The position numbers and the translations under genes were made by a program. A stretch of 30,973 nucleotides of DNA from a virus. Location: IMG/VR virus record IMGVR_UViG_3300017709_000019, positions 1-30,973 of that record; one strand, 5' to 3'. The stretch's first letter is position 1. Each line of letters begins with the position of its first letter. Below the pieces are notes generated by a model. The model saw only the letters and a program-made list of their open reading frames with translations, ran no database searches and was not told the DNA's origin. Below, in pieces: positions 15,469 through 30,973 of the stretch.

Positions 15469-16197
15469 ATGAAAAAGAATCACTTAAGTTACTCGGCTTT
15501 ATGCCAGTTTAAAAAATCTCCTAACCATTTATTAGCATACTGGAACAAAGAATTAAAAACTACAGATGCAATGCAGTTTGGAACTATAATACACAAGATG
15601 TTATTAGAACCAGATACATTTACAAAAGAGTTTGCAATTTTTGAAGGTGCAAGAAGAGCTGGTAAACAATGGCAAGAGTTTAAAGAACAGAACGAAGGTA
15701 AAACACTAATTAAGCAACAAGAATTAGATGATGCAAACAAGATAATTAACAATGCTATGTTGCATCCAGTACTTACTGAAATGATGCAAAACAAAGAAGC
15801 AACAGAAATTAAGTTAGAGTGGCAACATAAAGATGTTAATTTTAAAGGCTTTGCAGACCTTTTAACAACGTTTAACGGTAAGAAGTGCATAGTAGATATA
15901 AAAACTACTAATGATGCTGGAAAACGCTTTGAACGTGATTTATACTATAATGATTATAAAATGCAGTTAGCAATGTATCAAGACCAATATGATAAAGATA
16001 CTGATGTTTACATTGTAGCAATAGAAACTACTACACCATTTAATGTGCAGATATATAAATTAGATGATAGTCTATTATTTAAAGGTTGGATGGATTATGA
16101 TTATTATACAGATAAATTTAAAGAGTGGAACGGAAAAGCTCAAGGTTACTCAAGTGATATTGTAGAAGTAAAAACAGAAACAGAAGAAATATTATAA
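15469..16197 (+). CDS. PD-(D/E)XK exonuclease (RecE/Cas4-like, DUF3799-type)
   Basis: LSYSALCQFKKSP..FGTIIHKMLLEP..KGFADLL..CIVDIKTT..YKMQLAMYQD gives the D..(D/E)xK and QxxxY arrangement. Confidence 0.7.
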   Translation: MKKNHLSYSALCQFKKSPNHLLAYWNKELKTTDAMQFGTIIHKMLLEPDTFTKEFAIFEGARRAGKQWQEFKEQNEGKTLIKQQELDDANKIINNAMLHPVLTEMMQNKEATEIKLEWQHKDVNFKGFADLLTTFNGKKCIVDIKTTNDAGKRFERDLYYNDYKMQLAMYQDQYDKDTDVYIVAIETTTPFNVQIYKLDDSLLFKGWMDYDYYTDKFKEWNGKAQGYSSDIVEVKTETEEIL

Positions 16198-16523: not shown

Positions 16524-16841
16524 ATGAAACAATCAAAAATCTTAACCGCATTGGGTTTGAGTTCGTTAGATGTACAAAATATGTTAATGAACGGACTAAC
16601 AATGCCAGAGATAGCAAAGAAGTATAATATAACTTATATTTCATTGGTACAGGCATTTAAAATCCAAAAGAAAGATTTTAAGTATATTGATTATATACAA
16701 CCAAAAGAAGAAGTGAAGGACATTAAAAACGTGTCCTTCGCTTTTGATAAACTATATACAGAAGAATCACTTAATGAAGATGAATTATTAGCATATTACA
16801 AATACGAACAAAAAAATAAAGCATATTATGAACATACTTAA
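16524..16841 (+). CDS. Hypothetical protein with a possible HTH (GLTMPEIAKKYNITYISLVQAF)
   Basis: 105-aa ORF with a helix-turn-helix-like segment near the N-terminus. Confidence 0.4.
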   Translation: MKQSKILTALGLSSLDVQNMLMNGLTMPEIAKKYNITYISLVQAFKIQKKDFKYIDYIQPKEEVKDIKNVSFAFDKLYTEESLNEDELLAYYKYEQKNKAYYEHT

Positions 16842-17103
16842 AAAAGCAAATGAAATAGTAAATGAAAGGTCTGAAGAAAAATTTAGAGAATATGGAGACT
16901 TTGTTAAATGTATGAGCAAAACAGCTCGTATTGCATCAGAGATGAGTTCTAAGGAAATAACTACAGAAGATGCATATAATGTATTAATAGCGTTAAAATT
17001 ATCAAGACAAGCAAATGCGCACAAAGAAGATAATTTACTTGATGCAGTTGCTTATATAGGCTCTTTAAATAATTACAAACTAAATACGAATCAAAATGGA
17101 TAA
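16828..17103 (+). CDS. DUF6378-like phage protein
   Basis: ANEIVNERSEEKFREYGDF..VLIALKLSRQANAHKEDNLLDAVAYIG resembles the family as I remember it. Its function is unknown. Confidence 0.45.
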   Translation: MNILKKANEIVNERSEEKFREYGDFVKCMSKTARIASEMSSKEITTEDAYNVLIALKLSRQANAHKEDNLLDAVAYIGSLNNYKLNTNQNG

Positions 17104-17857
17104 TAATTTATTTGAATTAAATTATAAACAATTATTAATGAAATGTTTAATAAATGGTGAATTATGTAATAATAGAACAAAAGAAAAAACATATAAGTTA
17201 TTTAATCAATCATTTAATATTGATTTACAAAAAGGCTTCCCTATAGTTACTGGTAAAAAAATATTTTTTGAAAAAGCTTTAGCAGAGTTTAAATGGATTT
17301 ATGAAGGCCGTACAGATTTAAAATATTTACAAGATAATAATATAAATTGGTGGAATGAGTTTGCAATTAATAATAAACTTGGTAAAATATACGGTTATCA
17401 ATTAAGAAAATTTAATAATTCATTTGACCAAATTAAATATGTTATTAATGAAATAAAAAATAATTCAAGAAGAGCTTTAATAACTTTATGGAATCCAACT
17501 GATTTAAAAGAGCAAGCTCTTCCATGTTGTTATACACAAATGAATTTTGTACGAGTAAATAATAAATTAAATATGAGTATTAGTTTTAGAAGTTCAGATT
17601 TGTTTTTAGGTTTACCTTATGATATAATATTTGCAGCATTATTATTAAAAACAATTTCTTTACAATGTAATTTACAAGAACATTTTTTAGGTATTAATAT
17701 AGCTGATGCTCATGTATATGAATGCCATAAAGAAAATGTTAAAGAATATTATAATAATGTAAATTATGTTTTACCTAAACTTAAAGGCGATTATAATAAT
17801 TATACGCTTGAAAATTACAAACACAATAAATATATAAAATCAAAATTAGTATTATGA
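17096..17857 (+). CDS. Thymidylate-synthase-family enzyme with a pyrimidine-specificity Asn replaced by Asp (candidate dCMP hydroxymethylase or dCMP methyltransferase)
   Basis: By-eye alignment to E. coli ThyA: NRT (R21), AEFKWI (E58), IYGYQ (Y94), NSRRALITLWNP (R126/R127), ALPCC (C146), FRSSD (R166/S167/D169), DAHVY (H207/Y209). GLPFN (N177) reads GLPYD here. Confidence 0.8.
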   Translation: MDNNLFELNYKQLLMKCLINGELCNNRTKEKTYKLFNQSFNIDLQKGFPIVTGKKIFFEKALAEFKWIYEGRTDLKYLQDNNINWWNEFAINNKLGKIYGYQLRKFNNSFDQIKYVINEIKNNSRRALITLWNPTDLKEQALPCCYTQMNFVRVNNKLNMSISFRSSDLFLGLPYDIIFAALLLKTISLQCNLQEHFLGINIADAHVYECHKENVKEYYNNVNYVLPKLKGDYNNYTLENYKHNKYIKSKLVL

Positions 17858-18156
17858 AATTAAATAATGAATTTAAAACAATTAGAGAGTGGGCTAATAA
17901 AAAAGGAATATATCAAAAAGGCGATATTAAAACACAATATGTTAAATTACAAGAAGAAGCTGGTGAATTAGCTAAAGCAATAATTAATAATGATAATGAT
18001 GAAATAATTGATGCTATTGGCGATTGCGTAGTTGTTTTAACAAGTATTGCTTACTTTAACAATTGCACAATAGAGGATTGTATTAATACTGCTTACAATG
18101 TAATTAATAAAAGAAAAGGGCATATGGTAAATGGTTCTTTTGTAAAAAACAATTAA
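17854..18156 (+). CDS. MazG-like all-alpha nucleoside triphosphate pyrophosphohydrolase
   Basis: 100 aa with LQEEAGELAKAI..EIIDAIGDCVVVL (EExxE and DxxGD metal motifs) and INKRKG. ATGA overlap with the ThyA-like gene. Confidence 0.65.
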   Translation: MKLNNEFKTIREWANKKGIYQKGDIKTQYVKLQEEAGELAKAIINNDNDEIIDAIGDCVVVLTSIAYFNNCTIEDCINTAYNVINKRKGHMVNGSFVKNN

Positions 18157-18171
18157 ATAAATATATATATT

Positions 18172-18594
18172 ATGAGAAATTATAAATCAAAAATAATAAT
18201 ACCAGATAATTTATTAAATCAATCTATAGGTAAAATAGGTGAAGATATATTTGAAATATGGTATAAAAGAAACTTTGAAAATGAAGATTTACATAAACAA
18301 TTGCAAGACCGAGAATATGAGCAAATTGATTTTGCTGATTGCAAAGGTTATACATATCAAGTTAAAGCAACAACTGAAAAAACTTTTACTTTTAATTGTT
18401 TAATTGATAATTTAAATAAACATTTAAACGCTGATTATTATGTTTTTATACAAATAAATAAAAAAAATAATATTGCATATATTGAAGATATATATAATAA
18501 AGATTATGTAAAATTAAATATTAAAGCAAGTTTTAAATATAATAATTGCTTTATATGGAAAAAAGATTTAAAACAAAATAAACTAAAATTATGA
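18172..18594 (+). CDS. Putative PD-(D/E)XK-fold nuclease
   Basis: IGKIGEDIFEIWY..EQIDFAD..GYTYQVKAT fits an E..D..(E/Q)xK pattern. The gene is extremely AT-rich. Confidence 0.4.
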   Translation: MRNYKSKIIIPDNLLNQSIGKIGEDIFEIWYKRNFENEDLHKQLQDREYEQIDFADCKGYTYQVKATTEKTFTFNCLIDNLNKHLNADYYVFIQINKKNNIAYIEDIYNKDYVKLNIKASFKYNNCFIWKKDLKQNKLKL

Positions 18595-18974
18595 AAGAAT
18601 TACCATACTTTAAATTTTTTCCAAATCAATGGATTACAGGCAGTATATCATTTATGGATTTAGATGTTCAAGGTGCATTTATGAAAGTTTGCTGCTACTA
18701 CTGGAGCAAAGAATGTAAAGTTTCCAGAAAACAAATAGAAACATTAATACCTAAACAATGTAGTGTATTAGTTAATGCTGAGTTGTTTAAGATAGAAAAT
18801 GAAACTATTAGTATTAAATGGTTAGATGAACAGTATAAGCAACGTTTAGTAGAACACAAGCGAAATGTTATCAACGGAAAGAAGGGGGGCTTAAGCAGGG
18901 CTAAAGCATTAAGAAAAGATAATATAAAAAAAGATAATAAAGACCCTTATTTAACTACAAATTTTATAAGATGA
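18591..18974 (+). CDS. DUF1376-like protein (replication-initiation associated)
   Basis: LPYFKFFPNQWITGSISFMDLDVQGAFMKVCCYYW matches the YdaU/DUF1376 N-terminal signature. It lies directly upstream of the helicase. Confidence 0.5.
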   Translation: MKELPYFKFFPNQWITGSISFMDLDVQGAFMKVCCYYWSKECKVSRKQIETLIPKQCSVLVNAELFKIENETISIKWLDEQYKQRLVEHKRNVINGKKGGLSRAKALRKDNIKKDNKDPYLTTNFIR

Positions 18975-20569: not shown

Positions 20570-20920
20570 ATGAGTTTAAACGCAAATCAAAAGGGTAAAA
20601 GATTCGAATTAAAAATTGCAAAAGATTTAGCAAAGAAGTTTGATACTAATATAAGAAGAACACCAAACTCTGGTGGACTAAGTATTAAAGGAGATATTAT
20701 GACTACAAGTGGAATACTATCTGAATACAGCTGGGAATGTAAGAACCAAGAGAAATTAAATATCTGGAAAGCATTAGAACAAAGTGAAGGTGATGCAAGA
20801 GGCACACTAAAAACGCCAGTAGTTGTATTTACTAAGAACTTTGAAAAAGATTACATTGCTTTAAAATACGATGATTTTGTAAATATACTTCTTGAATTAG
20901 ATGAATACAGAAGTAAATAA
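20570..20920 (+). CDS. Putative Holliday-junction resolvase / PD-(D/E)XK nuclease
   Basis: NQKGKRFELKIAKDL..RRTPNSGG..KGDI..YSWECKNQEK fits the G-x-x-FE ... D ... ExK arrangement seen in small phage resolvases. Confidence 0.5.
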   Translation: MSLNANQKGKRFELKIAKDLAKKFDTNIRRTPNSGGLSIKGDIMTTSGILSEYSWECKNQEKLNIWKALEQSEGDARGTLKTPVVVFTKNFEKDYIALKYDDFVNILLELDEYRSK

Positions 20921-29382: not shown

Positions 29383-30973
29383 GTAAAGAAGTAATTGTAA
29401 CGGTAAAAGCAGACACAAAAAACGCTCAAACTAACGTAAAAGATTTAAACAAAGATTTAAAAGAAACTAAAGGTGATTTATCTGGTGTTGAGAATTTAGC
29501 AGATAAAGCTACTGGTGGGTTAATTAGCGGTTTTAAGGGTGTTACATCTACTATTGGTGGAGTTGTAAAAGGTTTTAAAACTATGCGAATGGCAATTATT
29601 GCTACAGGTATAGGTGCTTTGGTTATTGCTGTTTCATCATTAATGGCTGCATTTACATCAAGTGAAGAAGGTGCAAATAAGTTTAATAAAATACTTGGTG
29701 TTCTTGGTGCTGTAGTAGATAACTTTATTGATTTACTTGCAGATTTTGGAGAGGCAATAATATCAGCTTTTGAAAACCCAAAAGAAGCTTTAATGTCATT
29801 TGTTAACTTATTAAAAAATCAAGTAGTTAACAGAATTACTGGCTTAATGGAGTTAATACCTCAGCTTGGTAAAGCAGTTCAATTAGTTTTTGAAGGTGAA
29901 TTTTCTGAAGCTGGAAAAGTAGCAACAAACGCAGTTGGCAAAGTAGCATTAGGTGTTGAAGATGTTACTGAAAAAATACAAGCAGCAACACAAGCTACAA
30001 AAGAATTTATTGAAGAAAATATAAAAGATGCTGAAGGAGCAGCAAGGGTTGCTGATATGCGAGCAAAAGCAACTAAACTTGAAAGAGAATTATTGGTTGA
30101 ACGTTCTAAGTTAGAAAGTGAAATTGCAAACTTAAGATTAAAATCAAGACAGGAAGAAGAGTTTGGAGTAGCAGAAAGAAAACAAGCTTTATTAGATGCA
30201 CAAAAATTAGAAGACCAATTATTGCAAAAAGAAACAGAGGTTTTAAAATTAAGAAGAGATGCGCAAGTAGAAGAAAATACTTTTGCAAGAAGTAGTGTAG
30301 AAAATCTTGATAAAGAAGCACAAGCAATAGCAGCAGTTAACAGAATAGCAGCAACAAGGGCTAATCAACAAAGAACTACACAAAGAGAGTTAAACACTCT
30401 TAATAAACAAATACAAGCAGAAAACAAAAGAATTGCTAATGAGAAAAAAGCTCAAGATGATGCAGAATTAAAAAGAAAACAAGAAGCACTTGAAGCAGAT
30501 AGAAAAGCACTTGCAATTAAAAAAGCAGCAGAAGAAAAAGCAGAACAAGAAGAATTAGTTAGAAAAGAACAACAATTTAATTTATTACAAAAACTAACTA
30601 ATACAGCACAAGAGCAAGAGCTTTTTGAATTAGCGCAACAATATGATAAAAAGTTTGAATTAGCTGTTGGTAACGCAGAACTTGAAAAAGCTTTACAAGA
30701 ACAACAACAAAAAGATTTAACAGCTATTGATAAAAAGTATAGTGAGCAAAGAGCTAAAAACGAATCTGATGCAACACAAAAATCACAACAAGAAAGATTA
30801 GATGCTTTTGAACAAGGTGCAAGAACAACAATGAATGCTTTAATTGCTATCAATGAATTAACACAAGCATTTGCAAAAGAAGATGAAGCAAGCCAAAAGA
30901 AAGCATTTGAAGTAAATAAAGCAATAGGAATAGCCAACGCAATAATAAATACTTCTGTTGGTGTTTCTAAAGC
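29379..30973 (+). CDS. Tape-measure-like protein, N-terminal part (runs off the window end; the full gene is 1914 nt, 637 aa, on the circular map)
   Basis: ATG 29379. Hydrophobic segment MRMAIIATGIGALVIAVSSLMAAF, then several hundred residues of E/K/Q/A-rich coiled coil. There is no stop before the window end, and the frame continues into 2..442. Confidence 0.7.
   Translation, partial: MSKEVIVTVKADTKNAQTNVKDLNKDLKETKGDLSGVENLADKATGGLISGFKGVTSTIGGVVKGFKTMRMAIIATGIGALVIAVSSLMAAFTSSEEGANKFNKILGVLGAVVDNFIDLLADFGEAIISAFENPKEALMSFVNLLKNQVVNRITGLMELIPQLGKAVQLVFEGEFSEAGKVATNAVGKVALGVEDVTEKIQAATQATKEFIEENIKDAEGAARVADMRAKATKLERELLVERSKLESEIANLRLKSRQEEEFGVAERKQALLDAQKLEDQLLQKETEVLKLRRDAQVEENTFARSSVENLDKEAQAIAAVNRIAATRANQQRTTQRELNTLNKQIQAENKRIANEKKAQDDAELKRKQEALEADRKALAIKKAAEEKAEQEELVRKEQQFNLLQKLTNTAQEQELFELAQQYDKKFELAVGNAELEKALQEQQQKDLTAIDKKYSEQRAKNESDATQKSQQERLDAFEQGARTTMNALIAINELTQAFAKEDEASQKKAFEVNKAIGIANAIINTSVGVSK
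30851..30973. repeat. Terminal overlap, exact copy of 1..123
   Basis: Direct reading of both window ends. Confidence 0.95.

Follow-up and report, generated by a model that had tools for sequence, protein, structure and literature searches.

A ThyA-family gene carrying a cytosine-specifying aspartate belongs to a predicted 5-methylcytosine cassette in an uncultured phage group

The phage genome in IMG/VR virus record IMGVR_UViG_3300017709_000019 (positions 1 to 30,973, hereafter the window, meaning the whole 30,973-nt stretch that was analyzed) carries three adjacent genes for a DUF6378 protein, a homologue of thymidylate synthase (ThyA) with aspartate at the position of Escherichia coli Asn177, and a MazG-like nucleoside triphosphate (NTP) pyrophosphohydrolase. 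We consider it likely, from the sequence evidence laid out below, that this trio is a nucleotide-level cytosine-modification cassette that makes 5-methyl-deoxycytidine monophosphate (5-methyl-dCMP) for DNA containing 5-methylcytosine (5mC), and the phage DNA probably has 5mC in place of cytosine. An initial annotation of this region had predicted cytosine modification, and the residue signature of the enzyme, the linkage of the three genes, and the genomic hotspot in which they sit leave that as the best reading. The same annotation overstated the novelty of the case, since the N177D change in ThyA is a published marker of cytosine-modified phage DNA that has been partly validated experimentally. 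The principle has appeared for phage Xp12, in the MetaGPA study of 2021, and in a 2024 preprint; the new example is a reduced, three-gene form of the Xp12 type. Some novelty attaches to what DUF6378 does and to whether three genes can suffice without a phage kinase or polymerase.

The four open reading frames (ORFs) that the initial annotation placed between 16828 and 18594 were all found there, on the plus strand. The second, the ThyA-family gene (17096–17857), encodes 253 amino acids, and its translation carries every thymidylate synthase motif that had been listed for it (NRT, AEFKW, IYGYQ, SRRALITLWNP, ALPCC, FRSSD, DAHVY, and the variant segment GLPYDIIFA). The product matched Pfam PF00303 (8.3e-61), with residues 9–250 covering profile positions 2–263 of 266, and in phmmer it hit 120 thymidylate synthases of known structure, the best at 3.7e-40. 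In the phmmer/HMMER alignments (~37–40% identity), SSDLFLGLPYDIIFAALLL aligned without gaps to SADVFLGVPFNIASYALLL, and therefore the Asp sits on the Asn177 column. A MAFFT alignment with E. coli ThyA (MG1655), which reads GLPFNIASY at the aligned place, also puts Asp on this column, in agreement with the initial annotation. The codon concerned is GAT at 17621–17623 (Asp176 of the window protein), at the position of pyrimidine specificity, while CTT at 17519–17521 encodes Leu142, which aligns with E. coli Leu143, a published discriminator between methyl and hydroxymethyl products. In E. coli numbering, used from here on for this enzyme, the product has D177, L143, D169, C146, Y147, F83, and Y176 and keeps E58, W80, Y94, R126/127, R166, H207, and Y209. 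Its C-terminal tail is also kept, reading IKSKLVL, compared with IKAPVAI in E. coli and IKAPLAI in a relative. BLASTP gave identities of 32% with E. coli ThyA, 26% with the ThyA of phage PaMx74, and 20% with gp42 of phage T4.

These features are shared across a large group of relatives. A search of a large protein collection returned 329 ThyA homologues at E <= 1e-10, mainly from marine metagenomes (Tara, JGI, and ENA) and many of them on ~30-kb contigs, from which 120 sequences were retrieved for residue counts. Asp177 was present in 120/120, so it is not a chance substitution. Position 143 held Leu in 117 and Ile in the other three, and Asp169 was again universal (120/120). The retrieved homologues have Tyr or Phe at 147, Tyr at 176, and Phe or Tyr at 83, and Cys146, R21, R126, R127, R166, E58, Y94, H207, and Y209 were found in the window protein and at least 119 of the 120. 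Conservation extends to the C-terminal tail, with K259 in all 120 and L262 in 114.

Published work, drawing on mutagenesis and on natural enzymes that were assayed, connects several of these positions with substrate and product. Of all Pfam domains, thymidylate synthase showed the strongest association with environmental phage contigs bearing modified cytosine, and the residues that best discriminated modified from unmodified contigs were 177 (Asn to Asp, the top position) and 147 (MetaGPA, eLife 2021, PMC8670742). The N177D change confers a preference for dCMP; at 143, a bulky hydrophobic side chain is thought to keep water out and so lead to a methyl group; the same position is Asp or Glu in MilA and in hydroxymethylases of the T4 type; and D169N marks 5-hydroxy-dCMP synthases of the RB69, DLP3, and RL38J1 type (NAR 2026, PMC13326640). 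With the T4 gp1 kinase co-expressed, 5-methyldeoxycytidine (5mdC) was made in vivo by the Xp12 enzyme and by five of seven tested metagenomic homologues of the Asp type, and PaMx74 and Xp12 are given as phages that replace cytosine by 5mC (bioRxiv 10.1101/2024.12.05.627091).

Read by these published rules, the window ThyA homologue is predicted to be a 5-methyl-dCMP synthase, that is, a dCMP C5-methyltransferase of the Xp12 type, rather than a dCMP hydroxymethylase or a 5-hydroxy-dCMP synthase. The Asn177 with which canonical enzymes specific for deoxyuridine monophosphate (dUMP; EC 2.1.1.45) read the O4/N3-H face of uracil is lacking in the window protein as in its homologues, and Asp177 combined with a hydrophobic residue at 143 is the Xp12-type arrangement. 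The Leu at 143 differs from the acidic residue of the hydroxymethylases, and the retained Asp169 differs from the Asn169 of the 5-hydroxy-dCMP synthases. We take loss of the C-terminal tail to be a feature of the hydroxymethylase family: T4 gp42 ends before the ThyA tail and has Asp three residues ahead of its catalytic Cys, at the Leu143 position. It is the combination of Asp177, Leu143, Asp169, and a kept tail that leads to the 5-methyl-dCMP prediction, which follows from the residue signature independently of clade membership. The initial annotation had named 5-hydroxymethylcytosine, 5mC, or a derivative as possible products; Leu143, Asp169, and the tail favor the second of these and speak against 5-hydroxymethyl-dCMP and a sugar derivative.

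The ThyA gene is closely linked to its two neighbors. Upstream, the gene for the 91-aa DUF6378 protein (16828–17103; Pfam PF19905, 7.6e-12) is the first of the trio and overlaps the ThyA start by 8 nt. Downstream, the gene for the 100-aa MazG-like protein (17854–18156) shares the ATGA at 17854–17857 with the ThyA stop, the translational coupling that had been pointed out for this pair. We compared 56 IMG/VR loci encoding ThyA relatives and found MazG downstream of ThyA in 55, the exception being cut by the locus end, and DUF6378 directly upstream in 54, while the surrounding gene order varied. Among 135 related loci and the window, all three genes occurred together in 55 of 59 ThyA-positive sequences, and DUF6378 was never present without ThyA. 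The conserved unit is the trio of DUF6378, Asp-type ThyA, and MazG, and the nuclease-like gene that follows in the window (ORF140) lies outside this core.

Comparison with close relatives that lack ThyA suggests that the cassette occupies a site devoted to DNA modification. Two conserved backbone genes, both on the plus strand, border the slot: orf105 (MKQSK..., 16524–16841) on the left, present in ThyA-plus and ThyA-minus relatives, and orf127 (MKELPYFKF..., phrog_29280, 18591–18974) on the right. In 20 ThyA-minus relatives, whose loci were fetched via the terminase, the terminases are 77–96% identical to that of the window, and the backbone of RecE-like, helicase, and RusA genes is present in nearly all of them. 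In these relatives the slot (window 16841–18591) holds other cargo, including an N6_N4 DNA methylase with a UPF0102-like protein (locus L064), MT-A70 adenine methylases (L097 and L116), a Tet_JBP dioxygenase (L086, 5e-23), and TET-associated glycosyltransferases (TAGT; L087, 2e-31, together with an FkbM methyltransferase, and L122, 5e-41). Further cargoes are a PAPS-reductase/DUF3440 protein with a weakly ParB_N-like protein (L102, L104, and L114), an ATPase-GNAT protein (L073), and elsewhere just a small nuclease-like ORF. These cargoes were almost mutually exclusive among the examined loci, where Tet/TAGT and ThyA cassettes never occurred in one locus. The pattern marks the slot as a DNA-modification hotspot. 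The presence or absence of the ThyA cassette in near-identical backbones supports its horizontal exchange, and the presence of other DNA-modification cargo in the same slot supports both that exchange and a role in DNA modification.

The initial annotation had also raised horizontal acquisition as a possibility and had noted the base composition. We found that the ThyA-like and nuclease genes are indeed the most AT-rich of the genome, with G+C of 0.207 and 0.184 against a genome mean of 0.307, that their G+C at third codon positions (0.09 and 0.07) is the lowest of any two genes in the genome, and that the G+C counts made by hand on six single lines of sequence (7, 8, 7, 9, 22, and 22) were exact. 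The ThyA gene is 5–10 points lower in G+C than its flanks in most of 55 loci compared, and low G+C was rejected as a mark of recent transfer into this genome because it recurs in this way; low ThyA G+C is an old trait of the gene family. The acquisition claim thus stands on the presence and absence of the cassette in near-identical backbones and not on its composition.

The third member of the trio is a single-domain, all-alpha NTP pyrophosphohydrolase of the MazG/PRA-PH type, as had been proposed. It matched Pfam PF03819 (2.7e-7) and PRA-PH PF01503 (9.4e-5), both over their cutoffs, two PHROG MazG-like families (1e-31 and 1e-28), and the PDB profile 1vmg (6e-9). Its metal-binding pattern is E34/E35-x-x-E38 ... 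E50-x-x-D53 ... D57, and five of these residues (E34, E35, E38, D53, and D57) do not vary among 15 homologues. It is a putative pyrophosphatase of deoxycytidine triphosphate (dCTP), perhaps of dUTP, and we infer the dCTPase role solely from its conserved adjacency to Asp-type ThyA. This context is a strong one, given the PRA-PH neighbors of Asp-type ThyA in PaMx74 and MedDCM-OCT-S28-C10. Kinship to the T4 dCTPase gp56 was rejected, with no detectable similarity and an hhalign probability of 5%. In 27 related loci, MazG is fused in frame behind an N-terminal domain of ~150 aa that starts YYIYHI..KIGCT..R and is absent from the window MazG (L014 5524–6270, L018 5702–6442, L034 10758–11516, L037 3133–3894, L043 8547–9296, and 22 more loci). 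Pfam relates this domain weakly to MUG113 and T5orf172, two families that we assign to the GIY-YIG clan.

DUF6378 has 1823 homologues and an AlphaFold model of a helical bundle (predicted local distance difference test [pLDDT] score 80) that had no fold match in the PDB. Two candidate identities were rejected, namely a degenerate MazG-like domain (hhalign probability 0.3%) and the missing kinase (no P-loop and no PDB fold match). In other phages, the DUF6378 gene overlaps the start of a methylase gene (Gordonia phage Neville, L142 3995–4444) or lies within ~2.3 kb downstream of Dcm-like and Dam-like methylases (E. coli phage Oekolampad, L141 3980–4501). The DUF6378 model also matches a predicted viral structure of 348 aa annotated as an N6-adenine methyltransferase (A0A8S5SUM2), which may be a fusion. 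Finding DUF6378 next to DNA methyltransferase genes in phages unrelated to that of the window hints that it is linked more generally to DNA modification.

The rest of the genome bears on how the cassette could operate. Bases 1–123 of the window recur exactly at 30851–30973, and this end repeat therefore shows the assembly of ~30,850 bp to be complete and circular (or terminally redundant). The phage is siphovirus-like with a small genome, encoding a terminase, portal, structural genes, and an amidase, along with Mre11-like and RecE-like exonucleases and a helicase-like protein. The gene at 20570–20920 is labeled RusA-like by PHROGs and matches Pfam PDDEXK_15, a putative phage PD-(D/E)XK endonuclease (9e-21); with the RecE-like gene (15469–16197) and ORF140, the genome encodes at least three PD-(D/E)XK-type proteins. 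Among the genes of the complete genome, we recognized no DNA polymerase, deoxynucleoside monophosphate (dNMP) kinase, deaminase, glycosyltransferase, or DNA methyltransferase, and no carbamoyltransferase, dihydrofolate reductase (DHFR), or ribonucleotide reductase was found; for kinase and glycosyltransferase, this agrees with the initial annotation. The nearest cultured phages, which are distant relatives, are P12024S and P12024L of Nonlabens (Persicivirga), with 52% terminase and 31% portal identity and the same genome layout without the cassette, and INPHARED held no near-identical cultured phage. Because these nearest relatives infect Nonlabens, the host is likely a marine member of the Flavobacteriia.

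Under our preferred reading, the MazG-like enzyme would convert dCTP to dCMP, depleting the canonical precursor and feeding the ThyA step. The ThyA homologue would then methylate dCMP at C5 with methylene-tetrahydrofolate, as its residue signature suggests, with Asp at the Asn177 position selecting the cytosine face and with Leu143 and the closing C-terminal tail favoring hydride transfer to give methyl rather than hydroxymethyl. Since the complete genome lacks a kinase and a DNA polymerase, host kinases would be needed to phosphorylate 5-methyl-dCMP up to the triphosphate, and the host replisome to incorporate it. The resulting phage DNA would carry 5mC for cytosine, wholly or partly, and could resist many restriction enzymes. 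DUF6378 would be a conserved third component and ORF140 a nuclease-fold gene that this variable slot may or may not contain. A stronger proposal, that the 1.3-kb trio is a self-sufficient, horizontally exchangeable 5mC "plug-in" that uses host kinases and the host replisome and in which DUF6378 is a required new component, is speculative and in our view rather unlikely to hold in full.

Other explanations make different use of the same evidence. The enzyme could be an ordinary thymidylate synthase that raises the supply of thymidylate (dTMP), with MazG as a generic house-cleaning NTPase or dUTPase-like enzyme. Database labels agree with this: the protein scores 160.7 bits where the NCBIfam TIGR03284 "thymidylate synthase" equivalog cutoff is 108.35, and every protein-database source that names the homologue calls it thymidylate synthase. 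Its catalytic residues are canonical except at 147, 176, and 177, MazG and ThyA are common auxiliary genes of marine phages, and N177D mutants of thymidylate synthase in mutagenesis work from 1992 reportedly retain some dUMP activity. We nonetheless find an ordinary synthase quite improbable, given that Asp177 is universal among the homologues and is accompanied by Tyr/Phe147, the two positions being the best separators of modified contigs (PMC8670742), that mutagenesis shows Asp to shift preference to dCMP (cited in PMC8670742 and PMC13326640), and that natural Asp-type enzymes make 5mdC (bioRxiv 10.1101/2024.12.05.627091). The slot, moreover, is otherwise filled by DNA-modification genes.

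A dCMP hydroxymethylase like T4 gp42, giving DNA with 5-hydroxymethylcytosine that is perhaps decorated further, would likewise have Asp at the N177 position, and the Tet/JBP and TET-associated glycosyltransferase genes of sibling genomes place hydroxymethyl-type chemistry within the lineage. This product is nevertheless improbable for the window enzyme, whose family has Leu or Ile at 143 where characterized hydroxymethylases have Asp or Glu, which keeps the tail that gp42 lacks, and which is 20% identical to gp42 as against 32% to E. coli ThyA. The complete genome also lacks a glycosyltransferase, a carbamoyltransferase, and a dedicated kinase, and no examined locus has both a Tet/TAGT and a ThyA cassette. 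A further alternative accepts 5-methyl-dCMP as the product but treats it only as an intermediate from which a host or unrecognized deaminase leads to dTMP or dTTP, leaving the DNA without substantial modification. Xp12-type phages do obtain dTTP by deaminating 5-methyl-dCTP (bioRxiv 10.1101/2024.12.05.627091), and a related cassette, in MedDCM-OCT-S28-C10, contains a dCMP-family deaminase. We give this route very little credence, since the complete genome encodes no deaminase, known deamination routes co-exist with full replacement by 5mC (bioRxiv 10.1101/2024.12.05.627091), and going through 5-methyl-dCMP offers no obvious benefit over using a normal ThyA.

Restriction-site content was considered as a possible sign of modification. 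The window contains no GATC site against 66 expected, one CTAG against 78, and five CATG against 79, and CCGG is absent; GGCC, GCGC, AGCT, and TGCA are not avoided. P12024S, without the module, has the opposite profile and avoids GGCC, CCGG, and CGCG. For reference, fully 5mC-substituted Xp12 DNA is cut by MboI and TaqI and left uncut by HpaII, MspI, and HinP1I, so that at first sight the window profile seemed to complement the protection given by 5mC. We set site avoidance aside as a sign of modification because close relatives without ThyA have the same profile as those with it. Site avoidance is probably a lineage or host trait that reflects host restriction systems.

Several points weigh against a cassette that makes 5mC DNA. 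There is no relaxed avoidance with the cassette: GATC, CTAG, and CATG are nearly absent from the window, and the ThyA-minus relatives are alike in this. The residual dUMP activity said to persist in the N177D mutants of 1992 counts here as well. The Leu143 rule is worded by its own authors as "thought to" exclude water (PMC13326640), and two of the seven tested Asp-type enzymes gave no 5mdC (bioRxiv 10.1101/2024.12.05.627091). The published in vivo assays co-expressed the T4 gp1 kinase, and the complete window genome has no dNMP kinase. The MazG substrate is unreadable from sequence, with gp56 similarity undetectable, and the whole case is built from sequence signatures, gene linkage, and genomic context.

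Directly after the trio lies ORF140 (18172–18594), a clade-specific accessory gene for a small PD-(D/E)XK-fold nuclease-like protein recognized by AlphaFold and Foldseek. As the initial annotation had noted, it carries an IDF..YQVK pattern; it had no Pfam, PHROG, or NCBIfam match. The AlphaFold model (pLDDT 87; 30 homologues) matched PD-(D/E)XK restriction enzymes, the best Foldseek hits being NhoI and the N-terminal domain of Eco15I, which are 5mC-dependent enzymes of the BisI family (E 1e-4 to 5e-4, probability 1.0, TM-score ~0.52, 123–141 columns, 15–18% identity), followed by PvuII and Hjc. D53, Q63, K65, and E105 are invariant among the ORF140 homologues and E24 is present in at least 90%, with Gln63 (Q63-x-K65) replacing the usual Asp/Glu. 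The model supports a PD-(D/E)XK fold, which has an alpha-beta-beta-beta-alpha-beta core and an acidic residue followed by (D/E/Q)-x-K on the next strand. Membership in the BisI family was rejected, as the likeness is one of fold, with no profile match to NhoI or Eco15I, and GCNGC, the BisI-family site, is not depleted in the window (41 observed, 37.5 expected). In a phage with 5mC DNA, a nuclease dependent on 5mC would attack the phage itself, and a similar specificity of ORF140 is unlikely, or at least unproven.

The initial annotation had treated this nuclease as a partner of the module, by analogy with T4 nucleases that attack unmodified DNA. The partnership did not hold up, as ORF140 occurs in 13 of the 56 related loci, exclusively the closest clade (L001–L013), and no uniform nuclease partner exists among the loci. 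The nearest structural neighbors of ORF140 are 5mC-dependent rather than specific for unmodified cytosine, which leaves the T4 analogy tentative. In 15 loci with unfused MazG and without ORF140 (13 of the 18 members of the RecE-like cluster plus L052 and L054), MazG is followed by a RecE-like exonuclease wherever the locus reaches far enough. Small PD-(D/E)XK-like ORFs stand at the ORF140 position in ThyA-minus relatives, and sequence kinship of ORF140 to the small nuclease-like ORFs of sibling cassettes was marginal (E 0.03 or worse).

If 5mC is really present, a very abundant uncultured group of marine phages, probably on Flavobacteriia, replaces a canonical base; our terminase search of IMG/VR returned at least 600 matching stretches. 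Such a base would affect library preparation for sequencing, methods based on restriction, methylation-aware analyses, and the escape of these phages from host restriction. Standard automated pipelines will misname this enzyme class as thymidylate synthase, although one residue alters the predicted chemistry. Near-isogenic phages that differ mainly in modification cargo would be a useful set for comparing anti-restriction strategies, and if the cassette works alone, it would be a compact tool for producing 5mC DNA in vivo without a kinase, deaminase, or polymerase.

Compared with known systems, the window cassette follows the logic of T4 gp42, gp56, and gp1, in which dCTP is depleted, dCMP is modified by an Asp-type enzyme of the ThyA family, and the product is incorporated. 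It differs from T4 in its components: in gp42, Asp replaces Leu143 and the C-terminal tail is missing, the window MazG lacks detectable similarity to gp56, and the window encodes neither a kinase nor a glucosyltransferase. T4 also has EndoII and EndoIV, nucleases specific for unmodified cytosine, whereas ORF140 is not a conserved partner.

The likeness to Xp12 and the Pamexvirus group, represented by PaMx74 gp52, is closer and includes the ThyA fold, Asp177, the GLPYD segment, Phe at W83, Asp169, and the C-terminal extension, as well as 5-methyl-dCMP as the predicted product. In PaMx74, the "hydrolase" directly upstream of the Asp-type ThyA is a PRA-PH protein (1.2e-15), a counterpart of the window MazG. 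At the same time, the two ThyA proteins are only 26% identical, and PaMx74 has a dCMP-family deaminase, DHFR, ribonucleotide reductase, and its own DNA polymerase, none of which the window phage encodes. DUF6378, as the third conserved gene of the cassette, also separates the window from Xp12 and PaMx74. The hosts of the Xp12 group are high-GC Xanthomonas, Stenotrophomonas, and Pseudomonas, in contrast to the low-GC host of the window phage, probably a member of the Flavobacteriia.

The Asp-type homologues of the MetaGPA work share with the window enzyme the diagnostic residues 177 and 147, an environmental phage origin, and a PRA-PH/MazG neighbor, and PRA-PH is among the top five domains co-located with deaminases of modified contigs, as is thymidylate synthase (bioRxiv 10.1101/2024.12.05.627091). 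The T7-like marine phage MedDCM-OCT-S28-C10 has this fuller context around an Asp-type ThyA that is 49.6% identical to that of the window, in the order PRA-PH, P-loop kinase, ThyA, dCMP-family deaminase, primase, and DNA polymerase. This module (L061 5179–7200, Votkovvirus) was deposited under ordinary thymidylate-metabolism names. The window cassette differs from the MetaGPA and MedDCM examples in lacking a deaminase, kinase, and polymerase and in sitting in a small siphovirus-like genome. The residue signature predicts 5mC DNA also for the MedDCM-OCT-S28-C10 group.

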